A stretch of DNA of 64,000 nucleotides, taken from positions 8,749 through 72,748 of the forward strand of contig CADBKG010000008.1 in the NCBI GenBank assembly GCA_902795215.1, given 5' to 3'. A program made the translations under genes and the position numbers. Every line of letters starts with the position of its first letter. Positions within the stretch are counted from its first letter, which is position 1. The stretch comes from an uncultured Erysipelotrichaceae bacterium (GTDB lineage Bacteria > Bacillota_I > Bacilli_A > RF39 > UBA660). Positions 3 through 21,750 of this stretch are shown one piece after another. The notes beneath the pieces were generated by a model. It was not told where the DNA came from. It saw only the letters and a program-made list of their open reading frames with translations, and ran no database searches.

Positions 3-740
3 GTAATAATCATATTTATTAATTTTGAAGATGTATTTAAAAAGATTATTCCTAAAAATAAACAAAATGAAAAATACGAGGATTCACCATTAGATTATAC
101 TTGCATTATAAATCTTCCAAAAGAAGAAGAGTTTTTAAGAGCAGAAATACTTGAAAAAACTAAAGCTTTTAATTCTATTAGAGCAGGGAAAAACAAAAAT
201 TTGGAAATTAAGTTAAATAAAAAAGTAGTAGAAGAAAAAGAAATGAAAGCTGCTGAAAAAAAGAAAGTTTTAAAAGAAATTCTTGAATATATTTCTAAAT
301 CTACGAAAAAACCAAAGATAACAAAAAAAGGTGCAATTAAGCTTAAATACCTATATAAACTTACAAATACAATCATATTAACTCCTGCCTATACAGAAGA
401 AGTTATTGATAATCCAACATTTGAAGAACTATATAATTATAGTTTTGATGAAATAGGATTTACAAAAAAAATAAGAGATAAATTATATGAACTACCAGTT
501 TATAATTACATATTGATTTTAACTTATGCTATTATTTACGATAATATTTATTACTTTGATGCTGTTTATAAGATGCTTAAATATAGAATAAAATTGGATG
601 TTAAAGGAGATTTTATAAAAGATAAGCATAAGTGTGATAAGTGTTTAAAACTTATTGAACAAATTATTGATGCATCTGGCAAAAAAGACACTTTTGAGTT
701 AGAAAAAGTAATTGATTTAATAAAATTGCAAAAAATTTAA
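3..740 (+). CDS. hypothetical protein, 5' end outside the window
   Basis: Frame 3 is open from base 3 to TAA 738-740. The ORF-track start at 201 is only the first start-like codon, so the gene probably begins upstream of the window. Lys/Glu-rich, with no motif I recognise. Confidence 0.5.
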   Translation, partial: VIIIFINFEDVFKKIIPKNKQNEKYEDSPLDYTCIINLPKEEEFLRAEILEKTKAFNSIRAGKNKNLEIKLNKKVVEEKEMKAAEKKKVLKEILEYISKSTKKPKITKKGAIKLKYLYKLTNTIILTPAYTEEVIDNPTFEELYNYSFDEIGFTKKIRDKLYELPVYNYILILTYAIIYDNIYYFDAVYKMLKYRIKLDVKGDFIKDKHKCDKCLKLIEQIIDASGKKDTFELEKVIDLIKLQKI

Positions 741-754
741 TGGAGGTGAAGAGT

Positions 755-6700: not shown

Positions 6701-8410
6701 TGGACTAGTTATAATACAACATCATTTACTAGTGAAGATAATGGTTCTTTATATGGTGATACTGAGTATCAAATGGATAATCAAAACCAAGCACCTTCAC
6801 TTATGTTCTATTTATACCATGCTAAAAATATATCACTTGATGAAGATTTAGGAACGGTAGTTGTTTCACTTCAAGCAATGGAACCAAAAAATGAAATAGA
6901 ATATGAAGTAAAACTAATTACAATAACTATAACAATAACAGCGGTTAGTTATACTGATGGAAATGCATACGATGCAAGTATTACTTATGGTAGAAAGTAC
7001 GAAATGCCAAGTACTACTAGTGTAAATATTACAAACAAATCACAATTCACAACATATTTTGGATTATATGGTGAAGCAGAAAGCTTTGAAGCAATGTATG
7101 GGACAGGTGGAACGTACAAGCACGTCCTTACTTCAACTATGGCATTCCCAGAGGGAACTAAAATAACAATGATTGATATAGGCGTTAATGATAAAAATCC
7201 AGAAGAATATTATTATATAGTATCAAATTCAGATTATACTCAAGCAAGCTCAGAAGTACAAACTTCTGGAGAAACATCTATACCTTTATCAAAATTTATA
7301 AAAATGAATAGTCCAGATACGAATAATACATATAGTGATGCTAAGTCTAATCAAGTATATTATGATGATGAAAACAATTATGCATACGAAGAATTCTTAT
7401 TTATTATAGATTTAGAAAACGCTAATATGACTACAACAGAACTTAACAAAAGTATTTCTATGGAACTAAGAAATAATGAAAATAGAACAATAGTTTCTGT
7501 ACTTGGTATTAGACAAGAACAAATGATTTATAATCTATATAATGAACAAAGCAACATAGCACTTGGTGAAACAGTTACTATGCCAAGTGAGTATATCTAT
7601 AATGGACTTAATACAGAAGTAAATTATGAAACAGCAGTTAATTATAGTGAAAATGAAGGTAGACAAACTATTATTGATACAAATTATGAAACAAGTAGTA
7701 TGGGTCTAAATATAAGTTTCTACGATTCAAGTAATACTTTAATATCTTCATCATTACTAGAAGATACAACTATAGAAATAAATGGAACAACATATCATTC
7801 AGATAGTCATGGTGTATTTAGGATAAAACTTGCAGGTAAAGTATCAAATCTATCTAAGAAAATTAACATGCATATAGGTAATACTCTTCCAAAAGGTACT
7901 TACAAAATAGAATATAAATTATTCGCATCAGAAGATGGTCTTTATAGTGATGGTTCTAGAGATACGATAGTTACTAAAAATGTAACATTACTTGGCGCAG
8001 AAAATGCTATTAAAGTAGAAACTGAAAAAGAAGACCAAATAAAAGAAAAAGAAGATACATCTAGAAAAGCATCATATATAATTACTTATGAATCAGAACT
8101 ACAAGAACCTAATATAAGAGTATCTATTAGTAAAAGAAATACTAATGACAAAGATACAACAAATTATACTGAAATAGATCCAAATGAATTATTTACTACA
8201 ACATTTGTTAATCCAGCCGTTAATTCTTTAACGCCAGGAAGTACTCATGAAAAAATGGTTACAACATCTCCAACAGCATCTATTAATGTAAGTTATAACA
8301 TAAAAGATAACGTAGATACAGGAACATATAAGGTTACATTTAGACTCTATAATAAGAACAATTTAATAGATGAAGTAGATAAGTATTTAATTATAAAAAC
8401 CGAGCCATAA
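755..8410 (+). CDS. giant cell-surface beta-helix repeat protein (putative adhesin), N-terminally anchored
   Basis: The ORF runs 740-8410. The better start is ATG 755 (GGAGGTG at 742-748, 6-nt spacer), giving MKKNRKIVLSISSFILFLCALFLAYKF, a basic N-terminus plus a hydrophobic anchor or signal. The central third consists of dozens of degenerate ~20-25 aa units built on (V/I)(Y/F)GGGN...NGG(T/S)(I/V), as in parallel beta-helix or Pmp-like adhesins. No LPXTG or C-terminal anchor was seen. Confidence 0.8.
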   Translation: MKKNRKIVLSISSFILFLCALFLAYKFLLPSSYSRITVGTPKWNGEIGYEFGGGNGTKENPYVISNGETFSFFLKALNDNPELYSDKNYILSSDIDLNNKEISIASFNGVLDGNGHTIGNIYLTNSIFNKLDNASIVNLNLENISINTNDNKPSVLAREINNTTISRVTIIKANVEVDNSNSKSGILASNITNSNINRIYINGNIETNSDYGMISSDESNNTLDHIILNGKINNEQTNKFFNNSSSENKNSYVLNEENIESIINELNEDEKEIIWQNYNGHLVYETKDLEAIKIKKAAIPKRVRGAAIVEHNSGVEGTNVYVNDLIADYNYYQGQNYVYSPSITATPTMENKNIYDETNLVKTEVVYDGVTGGKTGTISLTENQNKIYYYKYYEVNDNGTSGDNSDDYILIELLDSPFTNRPTNLAFHGWKTDYSGAFVYLDTEVYVRYAKIPVTYDGDNPEDISITFNAIWEEATTYTLNGRSWTQANNNIKAKGMEALEIRQIVNGNLTLPSGYFTYAGYATFYTRFTGYDVNGTYRSNYRCTSILGCAYYNSAQGTTYNPSTTYYKLNGQAVEVTEATLLADGVLKYIPKDQYTDMTGYFIQKTAANGTSLQGYYNSSGTALTGTCSSSGGCSNYYMIQADDNGEPDINVTYYYMVTRDTNILVMNGTMDNSWTDSMTKPFTLTSVHNGTDYRNSNNASWDIDYAYGYGVYTYVKAFNDLNLENLSISSGENLSNDGISTDTNTTDFFYGNYNNIKIGRGLTGTTGDGTSFIGFLGGNNSFDDVGSSSSPKRYRMIIESGVYRIGGATNGVKSTAHTHYIEETTILGSDIDRVKNTNNKLIIGNVYSPNWSGTTHSKDDITPAYTTIYKSGSFGTKKYDHATGAYIGGRGYGTIYGPVVATVEGGSFYNIVGGPVQPSTDEQKNKVFLNIKGGSIDNVTIGAGTNESYGNRILSITGGEVNYSVFGGSNAYDQTSGTYGILRGNSYIYVGGNATIGSSTNVNNNNTLWGAEAGSLFGNGVGNSASSSIGSNNNAYIVIADEAHIRRNVYGGGNYGAVGIDTSQNSSEVKIKIIGGTVDGSVYGGGNQNGGGSDTIPSNTYIEMQAGLVKGSVYGGSNIKGIVYGDSNIDIKGGTINGSVYGGGQGGYDNDNAPGTYVAGSVLINIGDTNSSTSPQINTSVYGGSAYGAVCTPIHDPTKTNETLTLNINKGTVVNSVFGGGQGSSTYTPIVACDIEVNINGGSLGNIYGANDASGIPSGALEVNLNGGTGSNVYGGGNNAGANITNVNLNGGTFSDIYGGSNQSGAVNTTHVTVNSNTATAVYGGNNAGGTVTNTNVVINAGSIPNVFGGGNAAEVTNSSVIINGGTTTNVYGAGNRAGASETHVTVNSGTITNLYGGSNQSGSVSESNVTVGALNAANNLINITNLYGGNNAGGVTSETNVAVHSGTIVNIFGGGNEAVTHYNNVDVDGGNITNALYGGGNNSATLMDVALNVSNVTLNNLYGGGNLGDVEGDVVVNVQNTTVNASIYGGGNQADVLGDVTLNIGGTTSTTGSVFGGGNHGMIGASGGSSTVTVNIKGASVTGNVYGGCNTSVVNGNTVVNIGASANTSLPTGNILINGTVFGGGEANASGSENYDFSFISVTRGIDINIDGTNYNSFALNGSIFGSGNASSSQGTSNIYIKNVGTRTNPNVNISIQRADKVTMDNSVIELLGATDRTNEYSNIKYSFNRIGELVIKNNSVLLLQKNANLLKKFTSAVDVNGTQKLAEVTIDDNGNYTRNVDNRLYNLANNNLNVMNSEDLSDYGIVKGMTYFGMYTKYSNGSYQYGMYKDDVGNGDSIDTGDVIIGSSYVLGSHMTSHDITKDGYYTNYANDDYTSVQTKYIDPTPEDADYYMWLIGAGATNYDIELTASKYSSLGTKELSMLDFSKGNTIFHVSGFNSEGLSPNIQLVDSSEVPNITKDKNLANSKIGLAMKSETSEWTSYNTTSFTSEDNGSLYGDTEYQMDNQNQAPSLMFYLYHAKNISLDEDLGTVVVSLQAMEPKNEIEYEVKLITITITITAVSYTDGNAYDASITYGRKYEMPSTTSVNITNKSQFTTYFGLYGEAESFEAMYGTGGTYKHVLTSTMAFPEGTKITMIDIGVNDKNPEEYYYIVSNSDYTQASSEVQTSGETSIPLSKFIKMNSPDTNNTYSDAKSNQVYYDDENNYAYEEFLFIIDLENANMTTTELNKSISMELRNNENRTIVSVLGIRQEQMIYNLYNEQSNIALGETVTMPSEYIYNGLNTEVNYETAVNYSENEGRQTIIDTNYETSSMGLNISFYDSSNTLISSSLLEDTTIEINGTTYHSDSHGVFRIKLAGKVSNLSKKINMHIGNTLPKGTYKIEYKLFASEDGLYSDGSRDTIVTKNVTLLGAENAIKVETEKEDQIKEKEDTSRKASYIITYESELQEPNIRVSISKRNTNDKDTTNYTEIDPNELFTTTFVNPAVNSLTPGSTHEKMVTTSPTASINVSYNIKDNVDTGTYKVTFRLYNKNNLIDEVDKYLIIKTEP
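3470..5790 (+). repeat. intragenic degenerate tandem repeats encoding YGGGN-type beta-helix coils (approximate bounds)
   Basis: tatggtggtggaaa / tttggtggaggaaa (YGGGN/FGGGN) recurs every ~60-75 nt. Protein examples are NVYGGGNYGA, SVYGGGNQNG, NLYGGSNQSG and NIFGGGNEAV. Confidence 0.8.
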
Positions 8411-8468
8411 AATACTAGTATGATTAATTTATTTGTGATATACTTAATTATAGTAAAGAGAGGTAAGC

Positions 8469-9041
8469 ATGAAAACAGTTGGTAAAATTTTAATTGGTAT
8501 ACTTGAAGCAATAATTGTATTATATGCAATATTTGTAATAGTACTAATGCTTTCATATAATGAATTTGGTTATACAGAAGTAGGAGACCATACATTTGTA
8601 TCTATAAATGACCAAAACATAACAGAATTATCGGATTTTAAAGAAGGTGACTTAATCAGCATTAAATCAAAGACTTATAATGAAATTAATGCTGGAGATG
8701 AAGTATATTATTATGCCACTTTAAATGATGAATATATTATTGTAAAAGATAAATTACTAGAAAAAGATGGTAATAATAGAGAAGCAGTTTATAACTTTGA
8801 ACACAATGACAGTATGGTTACATATGATAGAATAATTGGTACATTTGAAAAGAATTACGAAGGTAAAGGAAAGATATATGATATACTTTTATCAACTGTT
8901 GGATTCTTATTACTTGTAATCTTACCAGTATTAGTAATATTCATATATCAAGTTTATAAATTCGTATTACTTGTTAAAGAAGATAAAGAGTTAACTAAAC
9001 AAGAAGCTTCTCCAATAAAACTAAAACCAAGAGAAAAATAG
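8469..9041 (+). CDS. SipW-like pseudo-peptidase membrane protein (catalytic residues absent)
   Basis: RBS agagagg precedes ATG 8469. The protein has N- and C-terminal TM helices. It aligns by eye with the SipW at 61418 (FGYTEVGDHTF vs FGLYTIISGSMEP; EKDGNN vs TKGDNN; RIIGTF vs NFVGKV), but SGSMEP Ser and THRV His are replaced. A paralog lies at 56325-56903. Confidence 0.55.
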   Translation: MKTVGKILIGILEAIIVLYAIFVIVLMLSYNEFGYTEVGDHTFVSINDQNITELSDFKEGDLISIKSKTYNEINAGDEVYYYATLNDEYIIVKDKLLEKDGNNREAVYNFEHNDSMVTYDRIIGTFEKNYEGKGKIYDILLSTVGFLLLVILPVLVIFIYQVYKFVLLVKEDKELTKQEASPIKLKPREK

Positions 9042-9066
9042 AAGATTTCAATCTTCTATTTTTATT
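9039..9066 (+). terminator. intrinsic terminator
   Basis: The hairpin tAGAAGATTtcaAATCTTCTa overlaps stop TAG 9039-9041 and is followed by a T-run. Confidence 0.75.
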
Positions 9067-9245
9067 TACTTTTTAATAAATAATTATTATAATTATAATA
9101 GGAATATTATAACTAAAGATAGAAGACTTATTATGAAAAAATGCTTTTATATATTATTTTAAATAGGTTATTATCTTATTACTAATTCTATTAGAATATA
9201 AATGATAATTTTCGGTTTTAGTCATATTGATATTAATCATCATGC

Positions 9246-9275
9246 AAAAAGCACTCAATCATCAATATTGAGTGC
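9246..9275 (-). terminator. intrinsic terminator for the minus-strand thioredoxin-like gene
   Basis: On the minus strand, GCACTCAAT-attgatg-ATTGAGTGC is followed by TTTTTG (plus-strand stems at 9251-9258 and 9268-9275). Confidence 0.6.
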
Positions 9276-9394
9276 AACCCAAATCGAAAGTGGCACTCAA
9301 CCGGAAAATCAAGTGCTTCCTTTTTTGTAATTTAATAATATCATAAAAATAATAAATTGTCTATATTAGTATATTTTAAAACTTTGATAGTATG

Positions 9395-9907
9395 CTAGTT
9401 ATAAACATATTCAACTATGCTTTTTGTATAATCATAATTTTTATATCCTCTGATGCAGTTTATAGTATCGTAGTTTTTTATAAATAAAGTTAGAGGAGTT
9501 CCAAAAGAGTAGTTTAAGTGCTCATCTAAGTGAGAGTCTGTACACTCGGCAGGTATGATTATTTCACTATTTCTAAGTAAGTTTAAGTCTTCGCTTGATA
9601 GTTTTTTAGTATCAACATATAGTATTTTAACTTCATAGTTTTTAGCGATTTCTTTTAGTACGGGTTTATAACTTTCACAAAACTCACAACCTGATTTACC
9701 GATTACTAAAAAGTTAATTTCATCTAAAGAAAGATAATTTTCTAAACTTGCATAATCTGATATTTCAATTATTTCACCTAGATTTTTCTCAGCTATATTA
9801 GATTCTACCTTGGTATTATTAGATGGTTTTTCATACTTAGTAAATGAATACCCAATTCTAGCAAGTATTAAACAAATAATAATTATAATAAAAACCTTTT
9901 TATTCAT
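9395..9907 (-). CDS. membrane-anchored thioredoxin-fold thiol:disulfide oxidoreductase
   Basis: It has an N-terminal hydrophobic anchor (FIIIIICLILARIGY) and the CxxC motif GKSGCEFCESYKPVL in a thioredoxin-like context. Confidence 0.65.
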   Translation of the reverse strand: MNKKVFIIIIICLILARIGYSFTKYEKPSNNTKVESNIAEKNLGEIIEISDYASLENYLSLDEINFLVIGKSGCEFCESYKPVLKEIAKNYEVKILYVDTKKLSSEDLNLLRNSEIIIPAECTDSHLDEHLNYSFGTPLTLFIKNYDTINCIRGYKNYDYTKSIVEYVYN

Positions 9908-9994
9908 TTTACATCACTATTATATAATATCATTTTTTTTATAAAAATACTACTTACTTTTTTGCTTTTTCCTTTTGTTTATTTTATAATAAAT

Positions 9995-12364
9995 ATGGTG
10001 TTAATTATGGATGTAAATATATTTAATAAAAAAGTAGTAATATTAAAAGATAAAGCTAAAAAAAGTTTTGTTAAAATGCTTAGTAATAGTGATAACTTAA
10101 TAAATGTTAAAATTATTACTTTGTCAGAGTTAAAAAAGAAAATATATTTTGATTATGAAAAAGATGCTATTGTTTATATTTCTAATAAATATAATGTAAT
10201 AACAGAAGTGGCTAAAGTTTATTTAGAAAGTTTATATAATAACCTAGATGCAGAAGGTGAAAAGATAGAGTTTTTGAAAACCTTAAAAAAAGATTTAGAT
10301 GATCAAAACTTATTAATATATGATAATATGTTTAAAAACTTTTTAAAGGGTAAAGATATAGTTTTATTTGATTTAAAATATGAAGATGCATTTTATGAAA
10401 ATATATTTAAAGAGTTAGAAAAAACTTCTAATATAATTAGGGTTGATATAGAAGGGGAAACATCCATAAAAGAAATATATCCTGCTTCTAATAAAGAAGA
10501 AGAAATTAGTTTTGTCGCTGAAGAAATTGCAAAAAAAATAATAAACGGAGTAGATATTAACAATATTAAACTTGCAAATGTAAGTGATGAATATAAATAT
10601 ACAATTAAAAAGATATTTAAGATGTTTAATATACCTGTAAACTTAAATGAAAAAGTATCTCTTAAAGGAACTAAATTACTTAAAACATTTAAAGAAAATT
10701 TTGATAAAGGTACAACTCTTGCTTTAGAAGAAACAAATAAGCTTGTTAAAAATAGTCAAGATGAAAAAATGTATAAAAAGATGATAGATGTTATAAATGA
10801 ATATGCAATTATCGATGAAGAGTATGATATAAAAGGGTATTTATTTGAAGATTTAGAAAATGCAAGTGTTAGTAAAAAGAAACTTAAAAATGCTGTAAAT
10901 ATTATAGATTTTGAAGATGATATTCTTAAAGATGATTATATTTATTTAATCAATTATAATCTAGGTTCAATTCCAAAAATAAAGATGGATGAAGATTATT
11001 TAAATGACAAGTTAAAAGAAACACTTGGACTTAGTCCATCTTATGAAATAAATAAAAGAGCAGTGTTAAATGTTCAAGAAAGAATTAGTAAAGTTAAAAA
11101 CTTGGTTGTCACATATTCCAAAAAAGATTTGACAAAAGAACTTTACATATCTCAAAGTTATAAAGGTGAGTTATTTACGGAAAAAACAATTGAAACTACG
11201 TACAAATATTCTGATTCATATAATAAAATCCTTTTGTTAAAAGCGCTTGATGAAAAGAAAAAGTATGGTACTGAAAGTGATGAATACAAGTTTTTAAGTA
11301 ATCATTACTCACTTGACTATTTAAGTTATGATAATAGTTTTAAAGGTGTAAATAAGTATTTGTTTAAAAACTATATAAAAGAAGGTCTTAATCTTTCTTA
11401 TACAAGTATTGATGAATACTATAAATGTAAATTTAGATATTACCTAGATAGAATACTAAAAATAGATAAAAATGAAGATACTTTTGCAACTATTATTGGT
11501 AATGTTTTTCATAAGATGTTAGAACTTTCTTATCAAGATGATTTTGATTTAGAAAAAGAATATAAAAAAGAAATAGATAATACGGATTATGAATTTAATA
11601 ATATGGAAAAGTTCTTTTTAGAAATATTATATGATGAAATAAATTTAATAATCGATACCATTAAAGAGCAAGACAAGCTTACTAGTTTAACTAGACGTGA
11701 ATTTGAAAAAAGAATTGCTATAAAAATAAAAGATGATCCAATTGTTTATTTTAAAGGATTTATAGATAAAGTAGTGTATGATGAGATAGATGGAAAAAAA
11801 GTATGTGTTATAGTTGATTATAAAACTGGTAATCCAGCATTAAATATTAATAATACTCCGTATGGAATTGGTATGCAGCTTCCTGTTTATATATATCTTT
11901 TGAAAGAAGATCATCCTGATAGCGAGATTGGTGGATTTTATTTACAAAAGATATTAAATGCAGAAGTTGAAATAGAGAAAAAACGTGAAAGTCTTAAATT
12001 ACAAGGTTACTCAAATAGTGATATAAAGATTTTAAGCTTAGTCGATAGCAGTTATAATTCTAGTAAATTAATTAAAGGAATGAAAACAACTGATAAAGGG
12101 TTTTATGCATACTCTAAAGTTCTTTCAAATGAAGAAATAGATAAACTATCGGATATAGTTAAAGAAAAAGTAATAGAGGCTGCAGAGGATATTATAAATG
12201 CAAACTTTGAAATAAATCCTAAATCTATAGATGGAACTTTAGTTGGATGTGAATACTGCAAGTTTAAAGATATATGTTTTAGAAAAAATGAAGATATAGT
12301 TAATCTTGAGAAAAAGGATTACAAAGAATTTTTAGGAGGTGACAAGAGTGAAGTGGACGCCTGA
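9995..12364 (+). CDS. addB: ATP-dependent helicase/nuclease subunit B (AddB/RexB), short form
   Basis: It lies immediately upstream of, and overlaps, addA. The C-terminus carries the AddB Fe-S cysteine pattern: YYKCKFRYY, then GCEYCKFKDIC (CxxCx5C). A RecB-type nuclease motif is present (DYKTG). The start is uncertain (ATG 9995 or 10007; the track start 9962 is TTG). I saw no Walker A motif. Confidence 0.8.
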   Translation: MVLIMDVNIFNKKVVILKDKAKKSFVKMLSNSDNLINVKIITLSELKKKIYFDYEKDAIVYISNKYNVITEVAKVYLESLYNNLDAEGEKIEFLKTLKKDLDDQNLLIYDNMFKNFLKGKDIVLFDLKYEDAFYENIFKELEKTSNIIRVDIEGETSIKEIYPASNKEEEISFVAEEIAKKIINGVDINNIKLANVSDEYKYTIKKIFKMFNIPVNLNEKVSLKGTKLLKTFKENFDKGTTLALEETNKLVKNSQDEKMYKKMIDVINEYAIIDEEYDIKGYLFEDLENASVSKKKLKNAVNIIDFEDDILKDDYIYLINYNLGSIPKIKMDEDYLNDKLKETLGLSPSYEINKRAVLNVQERISKVKNLVVTYSKKDLTKELYISQSYKGELFTEKTIETTYKYSDSYNKILLLKALDEKKKYGTESDEYKFLSNHYSLDYLSYDNSFKGVNKYLFKNYIKEGLNLSYTSIDEYYKCKFRYYLDRILKIDKNEDTFATIIGNVFHKMLELSYQDDFDLEKEYKKEIDNTDYEFNNMEKFFLEILYDEINLIIDTIKEQDKLTSLTRREFEKRIAIKIKDDPIVYFKGFIDKVVYDEIDGKKVCVIVDYKTGNPALNINNTPYGIGMQLPVYIYLLKEDHPDSEIGGFYLQKILNAEVEIEKKRESLKLQGYSNSDIKILSLVDSSYNSSKLIKGMKTTDKGFYAYSKVLSNEEIDKLSDIVKEKVIEAAEDIINANFEINPKSIDGTLVGCEYCKFKDICFRKNEDIVNLEKKDYKEFLGGDKSEVDA

Positions 12365-15300
12365 ACAACAAGATGCCATATTTAAAAGTGGAACAAATAT
12401 AATAGTTAGTGCAGGGGCAGGATCTGGTAAAACTGCTGTGCTTTCTGAAAGAGTGCTTGAAAAGATTAAAAGTGGAATTCATATAAATGAACTTTTAATT
12501 TTAACCTTTACTCGCGCTGCCGCGGATGAAATGAAATATAGAATCAGAAAAAAACTAGCAAGTGATGAGACTTATAAAGAAGAACTTGATAAAATAGATT
12601 CATCTTATATAACTACATTTGATTCCTTCGCATTATCGGTGTTAAAAAAGTATCATTATATGCTTAACTTGCCTAAAAATATAAAAGTAAGTGATGAGTC
12701 ACTTGTTAGACTTAAAAAAGAAGAAATGTTTAATGAAATATTTGAAGAATTATATAAAGAAAAGGATATAGACTTTTTAAATTTTATTAAAAGATATTCT
12801 GTTAAAAATGATTCAAATATAAGAAAAACTATTATTTCTATTAGTAATAAAACAGATGGTTTTATTGAAAAAGAAGAGTATTTTAGATATATAAAAGAGG
12901 CATTTTATAGCGAAGATAATATTAATTCTCTTGTAATTAAATACGAAAATTTAGTTAAAGAAAAACAAGAAGAGTTAAAAGATGCAATCGATAATTTAAA
13001 TTACTATTTTGATGGAGATTATGTAAATAAAATTAATGATATACTTATTAATTTTTATACGTCTGAGTACAATACGTTATCTAAATTATCAAAAGTTAGA
13101 CTTCCAAATGCTCCAAAAGGGGCAAGCGAAGAAGAAAAAAGCGAAAAAGCTAAAGTAAAAACAGCTTTAGATGATCTTTTATCATACTGCAGTTTTGAAA
13201 GTCTAGATGCTATAAAAAAAGATATATTATCTACAAAAGAAGATGCATTTGTAATAATTAAAATACTCGATATATTCTATAGTAGATTTAAAGCTTACAA
13301 ATTAGAAAACAAAATATTTACATTTAATGATATAGCATATTATGCAATCGAAATATTAAAATCTAATGAATCAGCAAGATTAGAACTTAAAAATTCTTTT
13401 AAAGAAATAATGATTGATGAATATCAAGATACTAACGATGTTCAAGAAACATTTATGTCGCTTATATCTAATGATAATATTTACATGGTTGGTGATATTA
13501 AACAGTCTATTTATCGCTTTAGAGGGTCTAACCCTAGTATATTTAAAGATAAGTATGAAAATTATTCTAAATTAGATGGTGGAATAAAAATAGATTTGAT
13601 TAAAAACTTCCGTTCAAGAAGTGAAGTGCTAGATAATATAAATAGTGTATTTAAACTTATAATGGATTCTAAACTTGGTGGGGCAGATTATCAAAAGAAT
13701 TCATTAATGGTATATGGAAATAAATCATATGAAGAAAAAATGGATGATTTTAATTATAACTTAAGAGTTCTTGAGTATGATAAAGAAGATAAAACATTTG
13801 AAAACTTTGAAAAAGAAATATTTATAATCGCAAAAGATATAAAAGATAAAGTAGATAACCATATTAAAGTTTTGGATAAAGAAACAGGGAATTTAAGAGA
13901 TATAAACTATGGTGATTTTGTTATTATTTTAGATAGAAGCAAATATTTTGATGATTATAAGAAAATATTTGAATATTTAAAAATACCTATGACTATATTA
14001 AAAGATGGTAACATAGGTAAAAGTGATGATATTTATTTAATTAAAAATATGATAGACTTGATACTTAGAATTAATGCTGAAGATTTTAATGAAGATTTTA
14101 AACATGATATTTTAAGTATAGGAAGAAGTTATTTATATGAATATAGTGATGATATTTTATTTGATGCAATTATAAATAAAAATTATAAAGAATTACCATT
14201 ATATAAAGATTTTGAAGAGATAGAAGATATAAATTCTAAAAGCCCAAAAGATCTATTTGAAGAAATACTTGATATAACTAATTTATATGAAAAAATATAT
14301 AAAACAGGTGATTACTCTAATGTTGATATCAGACTTGAAAATATAGGTAATATTGCATCTAGTTTAAATGATATTGGTATGGGACTAGAAGAATTTAGAG
14401 ACTATTTAGAAGAGATTTTATCTAGTGATATGGAAATAAAATATACAGAGTTTAGTGAAGATGTAAAAAGCGTTAAAATTATGACAATTCATAAATCTAA
14501 AGGTCTTGAATTTCCAATATGCTACTTTGCAGATTTAGATCATGGATTTAATAAAAGTGATTTAAATGAAAAATTTATTGTAACAAATGAATTTGGGTTA
14601 GTAGTTCCAAGTGAAAATGAAACAAGCGTATTAAAAACTTTATATAAAGAGTCATATTTAAATGATGAAATAAGTGAAAAAATAAGATTATTTTATGTAG
14701 GTTTAACGAGAGCGAAAGAACAAATGATTATAGTTTTACCTTATAAAGATACTCATAAAGAATCTAAAGATAAAGATGGAGTTATAAAACTTAGTGTAAG
14801 GAAAAAATATAGTAAACTATCTGACTTTGTATATAGTATAAAAGATTATTTAAATGGTTTTTTTGAAAAAATAGATTTAGAAAGAATACCTTTAACTAAA
14901 AATTATCTGTTTATAAAAAAGGAAACTACGAGTGTTAAAAACGAAATAACACCTTTAAAGGTATTTGACATAAATATAGATAATACTGAGGTAGAAGAGG
15001 GTAAATTCTCTAAAGAAACAACTAAATTAATAGATAAAAAAGCAAAAGAGAACATGAATTTTGGAACAAAAGTTCATGAAGCATTAGAACTTGTTGATTT
15101 TAAAAAGAGAAATACAGATATTATTGAAGATAAGTTCATTAGAGAAAAAGTAGAAAACTTCTTATCAAACTTGAAGCTTGATAATATAGATAATGCAAAT
15201 ATTTATCATGAATTTGAATTTATTTATGAAGATAAAACGAGAGAAATGACGGGTATAATCGATTTAATGATAGAATATGAAGATCATATAGATATAATTG

Positions 15301-15447: not shown

Positions 15448-15475
15448 TTAACGAAATTGTTAAGTTTTTTGTTTA
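15448..15475 (+). terminator. intrinsic terminator after addA
   Basis: ACTTAAC-gaaatt-GTTAAGT is followed by tttttt. Confidence 0.6.
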
Positions 15476-15522
15476 CAAATCAACTACTTTGTGGTAGTAT
15501 AATTAACACTTTCGGAGGGGTT

Positions 15523-17016
15523 ATGGAAAGAGAAGAAATGTTAAACACTATTATAAATAGCACATATTATAAAGAGAATCCTAATTTGAGAATATATATT
15601 GATGATGTAAAAAGTTACAAAGAAGAATCTAATGAAAAGATTAAGGATTTAGCTATTAAGGCTCAAAGAGGGGATAAAACGGAATTAGAAAAAATTTTTA
15701 GTCATTATCAAATGGCAGTTCTTCAATATGCTTTTGAAAACGTAAACGAAGATGTAGATATTATGGATTTAATTCAAGCTGGGAATGAAGGAATATATAA
15801 AGCAGTAGAATTTTATAAGTACAATTTAAAAAGTTGTTTTAGTACTATTGTTATTAATTATATAAAACGTGAAATAAAGAAAGAAACTTATAATCAACAA
15901 TTTATTCAAAAACATGGATTTGAAATTCCTGATGGTTATCAAGCTGCTTCAGAAGCTTATAATAAAGCTAAAAAAATACTTGGATATGAACCCAGTAAAG
16001 AAGAAGTATTATCTTTAACAAATGCTAACAAATTGAGTACTAATAAGTATTATTCTTTACCAATTATCGATATAGAATTAGATAAAGGTTTTTCTAAGGA
16101 ACAATACGAAGAACTAAAAGAATTATCATGTTTACTACAAGAATTTAAAGAACCCGATAGTGATATTGACAAAAAGATGATTATAAATGCCCTTTTAGAT
16201 CGCTTAAGAAAAAGAAGAAGACAAATTGTTGAAATGTACTTTGGATTAAATGGAGAAGAACCAAAAAAAATACAAGAAATAGCTGATTATTATGGCGTAA
16301 GTAAACAAAATATATCAGCAGCAATAAATGAATCACTTAAAAAAATGAAAAAAATAATGATAGAAACAAATGGTAATATAAATTTAATAAAAGAAAATCC
16401 AAAGAAAGAAAAACATAAAAATAAATATATTCCGCAGGATGAAGGGAAAAGTTTTTATCAAATATTTGAACAATACGATGTAGAAACGAATGATATAATC
16501 AAGGTTTTATCTACTTTAGAAAAAAAATATATGAAGATTTTAGAAAAAAAATTTGGAAAAGACTTAAATGGAGAAGCATCAAACAGATTAACAAAAGAAG
16601 AAGATAATACGTTTTATAATGTTATTCTTACGATTATACTATTTAGAGCTTGTACTATTAAAGAACAGCGATTGGAACAAGAAAAACAGGAATACTTAAA
16701 GTATATGAATATAATAAATGATGAAAAATTAGAATTAGCATATTTTTTATCAAGTGAAGACTTTAAAAATCAAATCAAATATTTAGATGTTGCAAAAGTG
16801 TTTATTACAAAACTAAAATTTGGAGCAATTAATGGGGAAGAATATAGTGAAGAAAATATTGCTTACTTTTTAAAATTTAGTAAATCATATATTTATGAAT
16901 GCATTAAAGAAATAGTCACATTATGCAATAATTTAAACAATAATAAATTTAGAAATTATCTAGCATACTATGAAAATGAAAAAGAAATAGCAAAAGAAAA
17001 GGGAATAAAATTATGA
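15523..17016 (+). CDS. divergent sigma-70 family protein with ~220-aa C-terminal extension
   Basis: GGAGGGG at 15514-15520 supports ATG 15523 (MEREEML). Region 2 is DLIQAGNEGIYKAVEFYKY. A region-3-like segment is KAKKILGYEPSKEEVLSL. The region 4 HTH is RRRQIVEMYFGLNGEEPKKIQEIADYYGVSKQNISAAINESLKKMKK. An extension follows containing a second region-4-like segment (KLKFGAINGEEYSEENIAYFLKFSKSYIYECIKE). Confidence 0.75.
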   Translation: MEREEMLNTIINSTYYKENPNLRIYIDDVKSYKEESNEKIKDLAIKAQRGDKTELEKIFSHYQMAVLQYAFENVNEDVDIMDLIQAGNEGIYKAVEFYKYNLKSCFSTIVINYIKREIKKETYNQQFIQKHGFEIPDGYQAASEAYNKAKKILGYEPSKEEVLSLTNANKLSTNKYYSLPIIDIELDKGFSKEQYEELKELSCLLQEFKEPDSDIDKKMIINALLDRLRKRRRQIVEMYFGLNGEEPKKIQEIADYYGVSKQNISAAINESLKKMKKIMIETNGNINLIKENPKKEKHKNKYIPQDEGKSFYQIFEQYDVETNDIIKVLSTLEKKYMKILEKKFGKDLNGEASNRLTKEEDNTFYNVILTIILFRACTIKEQRLEQEKQEYLKYMNIINDEKLELAYFLSSEDFKNQIKYLDVAKVFITKLKFGAINGEEYSEENIAYFLKFSKSYIYECIKEIVTLCNNLNNNKFRNYLAYYENEKEIAKEKGIKL

Positions 17017-18380
17017 TAGAAAAAGTAGTAAAAGTATATGCTGATATGGGATATAATCCTAAAGAAGAAACAACGAAATACTGGTATAAAGTAGTTAATA
17101 TACTAAAAATATATGAATCAGCAGGTTGTGAAATAAATTATGCTTTAATAGCACATATTATTAGTATAGTAAAACATAAAGAAAAGTACCAAAGTCAAAT
17201 ATCTATGTTTTTAAAAGAGGCATTAGATGGAAATTCAATTGCTCAAAAAATAGTAATAGAATATTATGAAGATAAAGTAATAAAAGTTGCAAGTAATTAT
17301 ATTAATAAAGGATATGATTTTGATGAGCTTGTAAATGAAGGAATACTTAAAATATATGATTCTTTAACGAAAAAACCATCAAGTTTATTTTTCAACAATA
17401 TTATTCAAAGATTACATATATTCTATATGCGTATTGTAAAAGATAAAGAAACAATTAGTTATGAAAGGACTTATCAAAATTTAGATTCTCATGAAAAAAA
17501 GAAATATATAGATAATTCTATAATGGAATATAATATAACTGAAGAAGATATTTTAAGTCGAATTAGTGCAGAAAATATCAAAGATTATTTAAAAGATTTA
17601 CCTGATGAAAAACATCAAAGAATTATTGAGAAGCGCTTTGGATTATTAACTGGAGAAGAAATGACTCTTGAGGCAATAGGCAAAGAAGAAAACTTGACAA
17701 AAGAAAGAGTAAGAATAATTGTTGATAATTGCTTAGTTATCTTAAAAAACAAAATTATTTATAATGAACGTATGGCTGAAGTAAATTCTCAGATAAAAGA
17801 TAGTAAAGTAAAAACTTTAGAAAATTATGTTTTTGAACGTAGATTTAACTCATTTTTTGATAAATTGGGATATGATTTATTTACAGTATCTTTTATGTTA
17901 AGACAAATAGATAATGAAACTAAAGAAAGATTAATCATTGAAATAGGGAACTATGATAGTTCTAGTAATAAAGAAAAGCAAATAATCTCAAAATATCCAG
18001 AAGTACTTGAAAAACTTGATGATATAAAGAAACAAATGCAATTTAATAGTAAGAAAGCAAGTTTAAAAAAAGCAGAAAAGGAAGAAAGAATAAAAGAACT
18101 TAAAGACTTTATACTTTTTTATGATTTTGATGAAGTTAATGATATAACTTTTGATATGAAATTATTGGTTACTAAATTATATTTAGGTATACTAAAAGAA
18201 GACGAAAAATATAGTATTGCAAAGATTTCAAGATTTTTAAAAATAAGTAAAGAAGAAGTCCAACAATATATTTATGATGTTATACAATATTGTAATACTA
18301 TTAATGATGGCATATTTGATGTTTGTCTTTCATATTATGAAGATAAATTTAAAAAAACAAAAAGCAAAAGTTTTAATTGA
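17013..18380 (+). CDS. second divergent sigma-70-like protein, paralogous C-terminal extension
   Basis: ATGA overlap with the upstream gene. Region 2-like LVNEGILKIYDSL. Region 4 is HQRIIEKRFGLLTGEEMTLEAIGKEENLTKERVRIIVDNCL. The C-terminal module (KLYLGILKEDEKYSIAKISRFLKISKEEVQQYIYDVIQYCN...LSYYEDK) parallels that of 15523-17016. Confidence 0.65.
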   Translation: MIEKVVKVYADMGYNPKEETTKYWYKVVNILKIYESAGCEINYALIAHIISIVKHKEKYQSQISMFLKEALDGNSIAQKIVIEYYEDKVIKVASNYINKGYDFDELVNEGILKIYDSLTKKPSSLFFNNIIQRLHIFYMRIVKDKETISYERTYQNLDSHEKKKYIDNSIMEYNITEEDILSRISAENIKDYLKDLPDEKHQRIIEKRFGLLTGEEMTLEAIGKEENLTKERVRIIVDNCLVILKNKIIYNERMAEVNSQIKDSKVKTLENYVFERRFNSFFDKLGYDLFTVSFMLRQIDNETKERLIIEIGNYDSSSNKEKQIISKYPEVLEKLDDIKKQMQFNSKKASLKKAEKEERIKELKDFILFYDFDEVNDITFDMKLLVTKLYLGILKEDEKYSIAKISRFLKISKEEVQQYIYDVIQYCNTINDGIFDVCLSYYEDKFKKTKSKSFN

Positions 18381-18405
18381 CAAAACAGGGCGATAAGCCT
18401 ATAAT
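18377..18405 (+). promoter_or_regulatory. sigma-A type promoter for the ileS leader
   Basis: TTGACA (18377-18382), a 17-nt spacer, then TATAAT (18400-18405). Both hexamers match the consensus. Confidence 0.75.
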
Positions 18406-18630
18406 TATATGCATAAAGCAGTTGAGGAAGACGTCAAAATTCTAGAGTTTAAAGAGAGCTTGCGGTTGGTGAAAGCAAGTAAACAAGAAATTTTGTAAAT
18501 CACTTCTGATGCGATTTGGGGATAAGCCAAATACGTTTTACTCGCGTTAAGAGATTAAGCGCATGATAACTCATGAACTAAGGTGGTACCACGGGATTAT
18601 TCTCGCCCTTAGACTCATGAGTTTTTTTAT
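18406..18630 (+). promoter_or_regulatory. T-box riboswitch leader (Ile)
   Basis: The conserved T-box AAGGTGGTACCACGGG lies at 18580-18595. The AGAGA and GGTTGGTGAAAGC stem I motifs are present. A candidate AUC specifier sits in gtaaATCActt. The terminator helix AACTCATGAaCTAAGG...CCTTAGacTCATGAGTT plus a U-run (18568-18628) overlaps the T-box. Confidence 0.9.
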
Positions 18631-18642
18631 TTAGAAGGGAAG

Positions 18643-21600
18643 ATGGATATGAAAAAGTTTGAATCACTAGATAAAAGTGAAACAAGTAAGGTTGAAAAAA
18701 AGATATTAAAAAAATGGAAAAAAGAAAATATCTTAAACAAGACTATTCAAAATAGGGAAGGTAATGAAACTTGGGTTTTTTATGATGGACCAATATACGC
18801 TAATGCAAAACCAGGAATTCATCATGTATTTGCTAAGACTATAAAAGATGCTTTTTGTAAGTATAAAACTATGCAAGGATATAAAGTTTTAAGAAAAATA
18901 GGACTTGATACACATGGTTTACCAATTGAAGTAAACGTTGAGAAGAAACTTGGTTTCAAAACAAAAGCTGATATTGAAAAATTTGGTGTTGAGAACTTCT
19001 GTATCGAGTGTAACAAAAATACAGCGCTTAATATTGATGAAGTAAATAAAGTTACAGATATGATGGGGCAATTTATTGATTGCGATAAACCATATGTTAC
19101 ATGTTCTAATGAATTTATAGAAACTGAATGGTGGTTACTTAAAGAAATCGCTAAAAAAGATCTATTATATTATGGTAATAAAGTACTATGGTATTGTCCT
19201 AGATGTGGTACAGAATTATCTGCAAGTGAGGTATCACAAGGATATCAAGAAGATCCTGTTAATTCTATAATTCTACCATTTAAGAAAAGTGATGAAGACG
19301 TATATTTCTTAGTATGGACTACAACTCCTTGGACATTAATTGCTAATCTTGCAATATGTGTTAATCCTAATTATACATACTTAAAAGTTGAGTCTAAGGG
19401 ATATAAATTTATTATTTGTGAAACTTTACTTGAAAAAGTACTAGGTGAAGACGTAAAAGTTCTTGAGACATATAAAGGTACAGATTTAATCGGTATGAAA
19501 TATGATCAACTTATGCCATTTATCGATGTTCCTGGTAAGGCATTTGAAGTTATTGCAGATGAATACGTAACAGATTCTGATGGTACTGGTCTTGTTCATA
19601 TTGCGCCTGCTTATGGTGAAGATGATAATAGAGTTTGTAAAAAATTTGGTATTGATCCAATTAATCCAGTTGGACCAGATGGATGTTACACTGAAGGTCC
19701 ATGGGAAGGAAGACTTGTTACAGATCCAGAACTTGAAGTTGAAATTATTAAGTGGCTTAAAGAAAATGATAAACTATTTAAGAAAATTAGATTAACTCAC
19801 GATTATCCTCACTGCTGGAGATGTAAGAGTGCTTTAATTAGTTATCCTAAACCAGCATGGTATATCGAAACAACAAAATATAAAAAAGAGATTATAGAAG
19901 CTAATAAAAAAGTTAAATGGTACCCATCTTACATAGGTGAAAAAAGATTTGGAAATTGGCTTGAAAACATGATCGATTGGGGAATCTCTAGAAGTAGATA
20001 TTGGGGATGTCCAATGCCAATTTGGACTTGTGAATGTGGTCATCGTGAAGTTATTGGTTCACTTGATGAATTACAAGAAAAGATTATGGAAGATATTGAT
20101 GTTAGAAAAATAGAATTGCATAGACCATATGTTGATGATTTACATATTAAATGTGAAAAATGTGGAAAAACTATGGACAGAGTAAAAGATGTAATGGATG
20201 TATGGTTTGATTCAGGTGCAATGCCATATGGTCAATATCATTACCCATTTGAAAATAAACAATTATTTGAATCACAATTCCCTGCAGATTTTATTGCAGA
20301 AGGTGTTGATCAAACAAGAGGATGGTTTAATTCATTAATTTGTATATCTACTATTGTAAGTGGAACATCATCTTATAAAAGTGTTGTTGTTAATGATATG
20401 ATGTTAGATGCAGAAGGTAAAAAGATGAGCAAATCATCTGGTAATATTGTTGACCCAGTTGCAATAATGGAAAAATATGGCGCAGATAATATTAGATGGT
20501 ATATGCTTTATGCATCTCCAGTTTGGACACCATTAAAATTTTCTGAAGAAGGTGTTAAAGAAGTACATTCTAAGTTCTTTAATCCATTTAAAAACACATA
20601 TTCATTCTTTGAAACTTATGCTAATATAGATAAGATTGATATTGATAAATGCAAGATTCCTTATGAAAACCGCGAAGAAATAGATAAATGGTTATTATCT
20701 AAATATAATAAGCTTGTAAAAGATGTAACATATGAATATGAACACTTTGACTTAAATAATGTTACAAGATTAATAACTCAATTTGTTTCTGAAGATTTAT
20801 CAAACTGGTATATTAGAAGAAATAGAAATAGATTTTGGGCAAGTGAAATGACTGATTCTAAAAAATCTGTTTATATAACAACTTATGAAGTACTTGAAGG
20901 TTTATGTAAATTATGTGCGCCTATCGCTTCATATACAACAGAAGAAATATTTACAAAACTAACAAGAAAAGAATCTGTTCATTTAGAAGATTTCCCTAAA
21001 GTTGATGAAAAACTAATCAACAAAGAAATCGAAACAAGAATGGATTTAGTAAGAGATTTAATTTCAACTGGTAGATATGTTAGAGAAGAAGCTAAGATTA
21101 AAGTTAGACAACCTCTTTCAGAATGTATTATAAATGGAGCTTATAAGAAAATTCTTGGTGACTTAACTGAATTAATTAAAGAAGAATTAAATGTTAAAAA
21201 AGTTACATATGTAGAAGATTTATCTAAATACATGCATTTTAATATTAAACCTAACTTTAAAGTAGTAGGTCCTACTCTTGGAAGTAATATAAAAGCATTC
21301 CAAGGAGCACTTATGGATTTAAATGAAGAAGATAAGAAGATGCTTCTAAAAGAAGAAACTATTACAATTGACTTCAATGGCGAAAGATTAGATGTTACAC
21401 CTGATATGGTTGATGTTAGAATAGAAGCTAAAGAAGGATTCAATGTTGGAATGGAAAACAATAAGTTCGTTATTCTTAATACAGACATCGATAGAGATTT
21501 ACTACTAGAAGGACTAGCTAGAGAATTTGTTTCTAAAGTTCAAAATATGCGTAAAACTAGTGGCCTTGAAATCGAAAATAGAATCGAATTATATTATGAT

Positions 21601-21750
21601 GGTGACAAAGAAATTTTAGAATCACTATCTAAATATTCTGATTATGTAAAAGAAGAAACACTTGCAACTGTATATGAAAATAAAGATTCAGGTGAAGAAA
21701 TCGACGTAAATGGTCATAAAGTTAAAGTTCAAATTAAAAAGGTAGATTAG
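18643..21750 (+). CDS. ileS: isoleucine--tRNA ligase, type 2 (long, Thermus/eukaryote-like form)
   Basis: HIGH-region PGIHHV, KMSKS, ~1035 aa. The N-terminal region aligns with my recollection of Thermus-type IleRS (DTHGLPIE, CPRCGT.LS..EV..GY). It is preceded by an Ile T-box. Confidence 0.95.
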   Translation: MDMKKFESLDKSETSKVEKKILKKWKKENILNKTIQNREGNETWVFYDGPIYANAKPGIHHVFAKTIKDAFCKYKTMQGYKVLRKIGLDTHGLPIEVNVEKKLGFKTKADIEKFGVENFCIECNKNTALNIDEVNKVTDMMGQFIDCDKPYVTCSNEFIETEWWLLKEIAKKDLLYYGNKVLWYCPRCGTELSASEVSQGYQEDPVNSIILPFKKSDEDVYFLVWTTTPWTLIANLAICVNPNYTYLKVESKGYKFIICETLLEKVLGEDVKVLETYKGTDLIGMKYDQLMPFIDVPGKAFEVIADEYVTDSDGTGLVHIAPAYGEDDNRVCKKFGIDPINPVGPDGCYTEGPWEGRLVTDPELEVEIIKWLKENDKLFKKIRLTHDYPHCWRCKSALISYPKPAWYIETTKYKKEIIEANKKVKWYPSYIGEKRFGNWLENMIDWGISRSRYWGCPMPIWTCECGHREVIGSLDELQEKIMEDIDVRKIELHRPYVDDLHIKCEKCGKTMDRVKDVMDVWFDSGAMPYGQYHYPFENKQLFESQFPADFIAEGVDQTRGWFNSLICISTIVSGTSSYKSVVVNDMMLDAEGKKMSKSSGNIVDPVAIMEKYGADNIRWYMLYASPVWTPLKFSEEGVKEVHSKFFNPFKNTYSFFETYANIDKIDIDKCKIPYENREEIDKWLLSKYNKLVKDVTYEYEHFDLNNVTRLITQFVSEDLSNWYIRRNRNRFWASEMTDSKKSVYITTYEVLEGLCKLCAPIASYTTEEIFTKLTRKESVHLEDFPKVDEKLINKEIETRMDLVRDLISTGRYVREEAKIKVRQPLSECIINGAYKKILGDLTELIKEELNVKKVTYVEDLSKYMHFNIKPNFKVVGPTLGSNIKAFQGALMDLNEEDKKMLLKEETITIDFNGERLDVTPDMVDVRIEAKEGFNVGMENNKFVILNTDIDRDLLLEGLAREFVSKVQNMRKTSGLEIENRIELYYDGDKEILESLSKYSDYVKEETLATVYENKDSGEEIDVNGHKVKVQIKKVD

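Follow-up and report, generated by a model that had tools for sequence, protein, structure and literature searches.

The locus described here raises the question of what two adjacent sigma-70-like proteins, each with about 190 extra C-terminal residues after sigma4, might do for the cell that carries them. The two genes, S1 and S2, lie on the + strand between addB-addA (5′) and ileS (3′) in a 64,000-nt stretch of DNA from an uncultured Erysipelotrichaceae bacterium (assembly GCA_902795215.1, contig CADBKG010000008.1, positions 8,749 to 72,748 of the forward strand; hereafter the window). Sigma factors rank among the best-studied bacterial regulators, and the only fused regulatory extensions we know of occur in extracytoplasmic function (ECF) sigmas and have unrelated folds. 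We found that S1 and S2 are intact, selected and co-arranged sigma-70-family genes, that they belong to an undescribed family of sigma4-tailed proteins, and that the modules capping their tails are sisters. The pair has a patchy, accessory distribution, and S1 occurs as an old two-allele polymorphism. From these sequence comparisons we regard it as probable, if only just, that S1 and S2 function as accessory alternative sigma factors, with the tail serving as an in-built, sigma4-like module for protein interaction.

Sigma cores and sigma4-derived tails

Both proteins contain recognisable sigma regions, as an earlier reading made from the sequence alone (the sequence-only reading) had proposed, and every motif quoted in that reading is present as written. 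S1 passes the Pfam cut-offs for Sigma70_r2 (27.3 bits across residues 59–121; cut-off 24 bits) and Sigma70_r4 (33.8 bits across residues 224–277; cut-off 24.1 bits), and S2 passes that for Sigma70_r4 (38.2 bits across residues 198–245). Both exceed the 42.9-bit cut-off of the NCBIfam sigma-70 superfamily model TIGR02937, with 66.9 bits for S1 and 44.8 bits for S2 (residues 81–247). Residues 21–284 of S1 align to the RpoS/RpoD models of NCBIfam, region 3 included; Pfam Sigma70_r3 gave no match in the sigma3-like domain of S1, and no NCBIfam equivalog model is passed by this protein (best score ∼70 bits against cut-offs above 250). As the reference for the cores we used the canonical RpoD of the same genome (contig C10, 451 aa). 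Aligned with it, S1 has regions 1.2, 2, 3 and 4 all present, and S2 consists of an N-terminal extension, a region 1.2-like segment, sigma2 and sigma4, with ∼60 residues of region 3 missing. The region 4.2 helix of S2 reads TKERVRII against the canonical TRERIRQI. In region 2.3/2.4, the two S1 allele types described below read FSTIVINYIKRE (S1a) and FSTYTINNILHE (S1b), and S2 reads FFNNIIQRLHIF.

An AlphaFold2 model of S1 built from a 60-sequence alignment had a predicted local distance difference test score (pLDDT) of 85.7, with confident helical domains at residues 1–131, 139–177, 211–290, 311–409 and 412–496 (a model from the single sequence, with a pLDDT of 34.5, was of no use). Foldseek comparison of the S1 model with the PDB placed sigmaS/SigA chains in holoenzymes at the top, with 270–340 columns aligned.

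The tails of S1 and S2 have no Pfam, NCBIfam or PHROG family of their own. Their last 62 residues are 37% identical to each other (BLASTP E 3e-8), and two kinds of module, A and B, can be distinguished. To keep the assignment independent, the module hidden Markov models (HMMs) were rebuilt excluding S1, S2 and the proteins of L013 and C11 (a diverged metagenome contig and another contig of this genome, both described below). These models recognise module A and cap B in S1, and cap B in S2 (Table 1). The middle tail segment of S2 aligns in register with S1, yet it has no statistical relation to module A of S1 or of the family; it gave no independent-HMM match, and its hhalign probability against module A is 0.2%. 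Paralogy of the two ∼200-aa extensions, as the sequence-only reading had put it, is therefore proven for the caps only, that is, for the terminal ∼90 residues, and not for S2 residues 272–341.

Both modules can be traced to a sigma domain. A comparison with the PDB matched the terminal module to SigA region 4 (E 5e-4), which bears out the region-4-like helix-turn-helix (HTH) that had been read in the extensions, and the S1 cap matches SigK/SigE region 4 among NCBIfam models (E 5e-4). In hhalign comparisons with canonical sigma4, the family module A reached 95.3% (E 2e-8, 58 columns) and module B 97.6% (E 3e-12, 60 columns); judged by these profiles, sigma region 4 is the source of both modules. 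That the cap is a duplicated DNA-binding module, as had also been suggested, is nevertheless unlikely. Caps across the family are acidic, with a median isoelectric point (pI) of 5.0, whereas true sigma4 domains are basic (median 9.5), which points to protein, not DNA, as what the cap binds. A tree of 98 caps groups those of S1 and S2 in an exclusive clade (support 0.96), and on this topology the two caps arose by local duplication. In the tree of sigma2+sigma4 cores, the common ancestor of the S1 and S2 cores spans 60 of the 121 leaves, the divergence of the cores being too great for them to be placed.

The architecture is not confined to this locus. A tail profile built from five tails (S1, its other allele, S2, L013 and a C11 paralogue) was searched against 1.84 billion proteins and recovered 294 representative clusters (50% identity) at E ≤ 1e-3, and 37 at E ≤ 1e-10. 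Among the best 91 matches, Sigma70_r4 is present in 78, r2 in 55, r3 in 28 and r1.2 in 19. The family plan is a sigma core followed by one to ∼10 copies of the ∼75-aa module A and then one ∼90-aa terminal module B, and many free-standing tail proteins, 160–260 aa long, are present in the protein library as well. Family cores belong to group 1 or group 3, with a consensus that carries the group-3 FSTYA..CI.NEI.M..R, and within the family the cores of S1 and S2 are the most divergent by a wide margin, and their tails the shortest. NCBI labels the tailed members ‘sigma-70 family RNA polymerase sigma factor’, and they are known from metagenome-assembled genomes (MAGs) only, in one of which the member neighbours polA, fpg, truB and hisS. 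We found no description of the tail in Pfam, NCBIfam or the searchable literature on sigma4-derived tails. The sequence-only reading was thus right that no curated domain model or paper covers the tail, but the architecture, shared by at least 294 clusters, is not unique to the locus. We conclude that the tailed sigma factors are an undescribed lineage of uncultured, small-genome, low-GC gut Bacilli.

These organisms have genomes of 0.8–1.5 Mb, yet the present one (1.34 Mb, 93% complete, ∼26% G+C) contains at least ten sigma-family genes, including RpoD, sporulation-type sigmas and, on contig C11, three RpoD-like proteins extended at the C-terminus. The array that contains these three (locus L015) spans 2949–14863 and opens with two adjacent tailed sigmas at 2949–4859 (636 aa) and 4861–6645 (594 aa), which lie 1 nt apart and keep YA(S/T)(Y/W)WI(R/K)Q intact. 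After this pair come three repeats of a unit made up of a 193–197-aa protein without a Pfam match and a ∼500-aa protein; a scan detected SLH domains in one of these larger proteins, the sequence block of which is shared by the other two. The array ends with the third tailed RpoD-like sigma (478 aa), and the C11 tailed sigmas may control these neighbouring surface-protein cassettes. The housekeeping RpoD (contig C10, 23889–25244, − strand) has ∼80 extra N-terminal residues, the frames of most relatives being ∼360–375 aa.

Table 1. Positions of S1, S2, their domains and the flanking signals in the window
Feature	Coordinates	Strand	Basis or remark
S1, sigma-70-family protein, 497 aa	15523..17016	+	layout sigma1.2/2-sigma3-sigma4-module A-cap B
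S1 residues 1–131, region 1.2-like segment and sigma2 (DLIQAGNEGIYKAVEFY; region 2.3/2.4 = FSTIVINYIKREIKKE)	15523..15915	+	Pfam, RpoD alignment, model helices
S1 residues 139–177, sigma3-like helical domain	15937..16053	+	RpoS/RpoD NCBIfam models, RpoD alignment, confident model helices
S1 residues 211–290, basic sigma4 (pI 9.8), non-canonical recognition helix SKQNISAAINES	16153..16392	+	Pfam Sigma70_r4, charge, alignment
S1 residues 307–383, module A, sigma4-derived, without HTH	16441..16671	+	independent family HMM 55.2 bits, E 2.9e-19
S1 residues 393–482, cap B, sigma4-like HTH module	16699..16968	+	independent family HMM 47.6 bits, E 6e-17
S1 within-species hypervariable stretch, two allele classes	15600..16835	+	60-nt window DNA identity
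S2, reduced sigma-70-family protein, 455 aa	17013..18380	+	N-terminal extension, sigma2, sigma4, middle segment, cap B; without sigma3
S2 residues 41–145, region 1.2-like segment and sigma2 (ELVNEGILKIYDSL; FFNNIIQRLHIFYMR replaces region 2.3/2.4)	17133..17447	+	sub-threshold Pfam, TIGR02937, alignment
S2 residues 176–249, sigma4, recognition helix near-canonical	17538..17759	+	Pfam Sigma70_r4, alignment
S2 residues 272–341, middle tail segment at module A position	17826..18035	+	conserved with L013; homology to family module A not demonstrable
S2 residues 351–441, cap B, sister of S1 cap	18063..18335	+	independent family HMM 23.8 bits, E 1.6e-9
SigmaA-type promoter-like site in the 82-nt addA-S1 spacer	15472..15503	+	consensus scan: TTTACA, 17 nt, TAGTAT with TG
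Unit boundary: TTGACA-17-TATAAT promoter over S2 stop, then ileS T-box leader	18377..18613	+	consensus scan; RF00230

Arrangement, distribution and alleles of the pair

The two open reading frames occupy the positions claimed for them from the sequence alone, and they overlap by ATGA, in which the S1 stop overlaps the S2 start; a GGGA purine run lies 9 nt upstream of the overlap. The overlap is retained in four independent metagenome contigs, and translational coupling is supported. S1 starts with ATG, with a GGAGGGG ribosome-binding site a few bases 5′. The sigmaA-like site before S1, where an alternative TATAAT can be read at 15498–15503, is a pattern match only, and such matches are not commoner in the region than in shuffles. 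At the S2 stop, the promoter matches the consensus perfectly (12 of 12 positions), and the T-box leader scores 117.5 bits against its model. With the promoter-like site upstream and the ileS promoter and T-box downstream, S1-S2 is therefore delimited as a self-contained two-gene unit, the G+C of which is slightly below that of the neighbouring genes.

Outside this species, the pair turned up in a single place, a diverged metagenome contig (L013). We found no S1 or S2 orthologue in 40 relatives or in 200 genera of the family (∼240 genomes), no relative of S2 when it was queried against the JGI metagenomes, and none when the S2 alignment was searched against the GTDB genomes. The pair is absent from these ∼240 related genomes and also from the addA loci of 80 relatives, where no tail gene lies at a distance of up to 5 kb from addA. 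The tail itself is somewhat wider spread, being present in 13 of 121 relatives and, in a class-wide sample, in six of 400 genomes, all of the same family. The relatives are MAGs from animal and human guts, named as uncultured Bacilli, Clostridium sp. CAG:433 or CAG:628, Candidatus Coprovivens and Candidatus Scybalousia. A conserved neighbourhood was considered and ruled out, as ileS is preceded by mutS and two further genes in the nearest species and by rpsB-tsf in another member of the genus.

In L013, an S2-like paralogue lies upstream and is followed by the S2 orthologue (56% identity), with 90 nt between the two genes, a spacer that contains a promoter-like site. The S2 orthologue (L013 786–2154; ERZ12289774 contig) is divided between a core gene (253 aa) and a separate tail gene (206 aa), with stop and start overlapping in ATGATGATAAATAA; with coverage as low as ∼3×, it is possible that the split is a sequencing or assembly frameshift.

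Six further assemblies carry the locus (L001, L002, L014, L050, L051 and L052). Samples in which it is present are ERZ1029111, ERZ1029114, ERZ1029116, ERZ28613751, ERR3275138 and SRR30827660. DNA identity between strains is 95–100% in the flanks and 43–90%, mostly 57–80%, in the hypervariable stretch of S1. The window and L014 have S1 type a, and L001, L002, L050 and L052 have type b; the proteins are 63–65% identical between types and identical within a type, while S1 of L051 is a mosaic of types a and b, in the tail. The S1 (497/504 aa) and S2 (455 aa) frames are open in all seven independent assemblies. Between strain types, synonymous divergence (dS) and the ratio of non-synonymous to synonymous divergence (omega) are 0.47 and 0.51 for S1, 0.025 and 0.54 for S2, 0.032 and 0.05 for ileS, and 0.12 and 0.05 for addA. 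The dS of S1 is far above that of the flanks (0.03–0.12, at 98–100% identity), so the S1 alleles are much older than the strains; homologous recombination has exchanged them.

The S1 alleles diverge most in the DNA-reading segments. Omega is 0.78 in region 2.3/2.4, 1.29 in the region 3.2 linker, 0.59 in region 4 and 0.91 in the linker to the tail, and reaches 0.8 over residues 93–330 as a whole. Purifying selection is seen in the N-terminus and sigma2.1–2.2 (omega 0.29 over residues 1–92) and in the tail (0.15–0.34). The two-allele pattern suggests that the alleles are two specificity types, or else that DNA reading is weakly constrained. In S2, the sigma core hardly varies between strains, and the omega of ∼0.5 for this gene rests on few changes; compared with L001, L002, L050, L051 and L052, the differences fall mostly in the tail from residue 292, chiefly at 292–377 (for example, D336E, D337Y, Q343E, L368C, F369T and D373I). 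Two sources of the S1 variation were considered and rejected. A silent donor cassette was not supported, as the variable segment of S1b is unmatched elsewhere in the genome as protein or DNA, and neither was a diversity-generating retroelement, as there is no adenine bias and changes hit all four bases and every codon position (third, 134; first, 120; second, 73).

Among the neighbouring genes, ileS (window 18643–21750) encodes a 1035-aa enzyme. This IleS was found in only two other species of the genus (97% and 73% identity over the first 200 residues), with a third, partial sequence 67% identical over residues 104–200; most other members of the genus have a ∼915-aa IleS that is 31–33% identical to that of the window. 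The gene order before ileS differs each time, a pattern that suggests that the gene has been replaced or transferred within the genus. Elsewhere in the window, a 2556-aa open reading frame (740–8410, + strand) has no Pfam match at E ≤ 1e-3, and the two frames that follow it (190 aa, + strand; 170 aa, − strand) are likewise without one.

Possible functions of S1 and S2

Were S1 and S2 alternative sigma factors, as we favour, each would use its conserved sigma2 and sigma4 to bind core RNA polymerase, and the translationally coupled pair would be co-transcribed from the sigmaA-type promoter. The tail would then act in cis as a sigma4-like module for protein interaction and not for further DNA reading. 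Its targets may be the partners of sigma4 (the beta-flap and sigma4-binding regulators), which it would occupy or compete for; alternatively, it may dock back onto the core. In either role it would be comparable to the regulatory extensions fused to some ECF sigmas. The suggestion of the sequence-only reading that each protein is a sigma fused to its own regulatory domain is plausible. Given the free-standing tail proteins and the split in L013, the tail may work in trans too.

Several observations weigh against alternative sigma activity. The Sigma70_r2 match of S2 (residues 82–118) scores 19.1 bits, under the Pfam cut-off, and the sigma4 recognition helix of S1 lacks any canonical R/E/R/Q contact and varies between alleles. 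The DNA-reading segments of S1 are its least constrained (omega 0.6–1.3), the opposite of what is expected for a sigma with a fixed regulon. The predicted template modelling score of the S1 model, 0.48, makes it unreliable on the placement of the tail relative to the core. No candidate target promoter was identified for S1 or S2: the upstream spacers of the window and L013 look sigmaA-like, and so yielded no unusual motif that could be used for a genome-wide search. Finally, the group-1 YATWWIRQ residues for −10 melting are absent from region 2.3/2.4 of both proteins, which upholds the earlier observation of a degenerate melting region in part. The degeneracy is also partly an artefact of taking RpoD as the standard of comparison, as the S1 segment FSTIVINYIKREI is nearer to the group-3 FSTYA..CI.NEI, the consensus of the wider tailed family. 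Departure from YATWWIRQ does not exclude sigma function, since alternative sigma groups depart from it too.

Several other explanations deserve weighing. S1 and S2 might form an obligate pair, one heteromeric factor joined via the sister B caps or long tail helices, in which S1 would provide a sigma2/sigma3 scaffold with variable specificity and S2 a better-kept sigma4 head as the constant partner. We consider this, and with it the heterodimer suggested from the sequence alone, unlikely, though more likely than the other alternatives. It would account for an ATGA coupling that is kept in all strains, for caps that are each other's closest relatives, for a near-canonical sigma4 helix in S2 and not in S1, and for the dimorphism of S1 beside a nearly invariant S2 core; tandem tailed sigmas also recur, on C11 and in L013. 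Each protein nevertheless carries both sigma2 and sigma4, which known split sigmas do not (PMC7826278), duplication normally yields tandem paralogues, and core polymerase normally holds one sigma at a time, while the upstream gene of L013 is S2-like, not S1-like, and is set apart by a spacer with its own promoter-like site. A shade less probable is that the two proteins are sigma mimics, which would bind core polymerase or sigma4-binding proteins without directing initiation and serve as competitors, decoys (against phage proteins that target sigma4, for example) or regulators; mimicry would explain the fast evolution. The weak constraint on DNA reading in S1 alongside conserved core-binding and tail segments, the acidic cap, an omega in both genes far above that of addA and ileS, the patchy, accessory distribution, and two old alleles with a mosaic form, the pattern of loci under conflict, all favour mimicry. 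Yet the sigma4 of S1 is basic and above the Pfam threshold, and the well-conserved group-1 and group-3 cores of most family members suggest real sigma activity. PADLOC returned only weak MzaA matches to the sigma cores, no better than generic sigma similarity, and no defence or phage genes are directly adjacent.

It is very improbable that S1 and S2 are decaying duplicates, the non-functional remnants of a tailed sigma pair, with the divergence of S1 reflecting lost constraint. The high omega of the S1 core, the loss of canonical DNA-contact residues and the restriction of the pair to one species and one diverged contig would fit decay, but both frames have stayed open in every independent assembly despite the high dS of S1, omega is low in the N-terminus and tail of S1, the S2 core is nearly invariant between strains, and start signals and coupling are retained. 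Least probable of all is a phage or mobile-element regulatory module (a late-gene sigma, for example) inserted as cargo between addA and ileS. The position is empty of the pair in 80 relatives and in the nearest species, the G+C is slightly under that of the neighbours, and S1 matches the phage sigma factor family phrog_351 (E 1e-29). This match, however, reflects generic sigma-core similarity, and a Foldseek search of viral structures yielded ordinary sigma factors only; S2 and the tails have no match in PHROGs. Integrase, repeat boundary and phage genes are all absent nearby, and another family member sits among housekeeping genes. As the PADLOC, PHROG and viral Foldseek results are generic only, they lend no support to a phage or defence origin.

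If the tail of these proposed alternative sigma factors is a built-in sigma4 mimic, it would represent a new principle of sigma control, in a sizeable family of group-1/group-3-type sigmas in which copies of the protein's own region 4 form the tail. S1 and S2, as the smallest members (one module and a cap), would be convenient for experiments, and the presence of two S1 alleles between near-identical flanks suggests strain-variable transcription specificity or resistance to a sigma-targeting agent. We can also imagine, as a rather speculative and quite unlikely proposal, a two-part device in which S2 is the constant partner and S1 a swappable specificity subunit held in balanced polymorphism. 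Here, the old, recombining S1 alleles would differ mainly in the helices that read −10 and −35, and the cap-joined tails would mimic sigma4, docking on the beta-flap or capturing sigma4-binding regulators or phage anti-sigma proteins. Such a device, if true, would be a new way to control or protect RNA polymerase, with a sigma that carries its own sigma4 decoy.

Comparison with known sigma systems

The group 3 alternative sigmas of Bacillota (SigE/SigK/SigF/SigG) share with S1 the sigma2-sigma3-sigma4 order, in a core of ∼290 aa, and share their signature with the tailed family; the best structural matches of S1 are full-length holoenzyme sigma chains. S1 differs from them in its ∼190-aa tail past region 4 and in its non-canonical regions 2.4 and 4.2.

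C-terminal extensions are described for several ECF groups, with SnoaL-like domains in ECF41 and ECF56, TPR in ECF42 and a Cys-rich domain in ECF238 (PMC7826278). These sigmas likewise combine a core and a C-terminal extension without an adjacent anti-sigma gene, and they offer the best functional analogy for a tail that would control its own sigma in cis. The ECF layout of sigma2 and sigma4 only is fitted by S2, which has no sigma3, whereas S1 has a sigma3-like domain, and the cores of the tailed family are group 1 or group 3. The tails described here are degenerate copies of region 4, a type not listed in PMC7826278, and none has a Pfam match to the described ECF extension types (SnoaL-like, TPR, Cys-rich, DUF1835 or transmembrane).

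In split sigmas, sigma2 and sigma4 reside on separate, small polypeptides (PMC7826278; bioRxiv 10.64898/2026.10.01.756105). B. subtilis SigO-RsoA, with which the sequence-only reading had compared the pair, Tn916 Sig7-Sig8 and T4 gp55-gp33 are likewise encoded by two adjacent, co-expressed sigma-related genes. S1 and S2, however, are each ∼450–500 aa long with both sigma2 and sigma4, and a split of the SigO-RsoA type is therefore rejected.

The remaining comparison is with the other tailed sigmas of uncultured gut Bacilli, with which S1 shares one module A and one module B, and S2 the B cap. The pair differs from them in that S2 lacks sigma3 and has a middle segment not recognisably of type A, S1 and S2 are coupled, and S1 is dimorphic.

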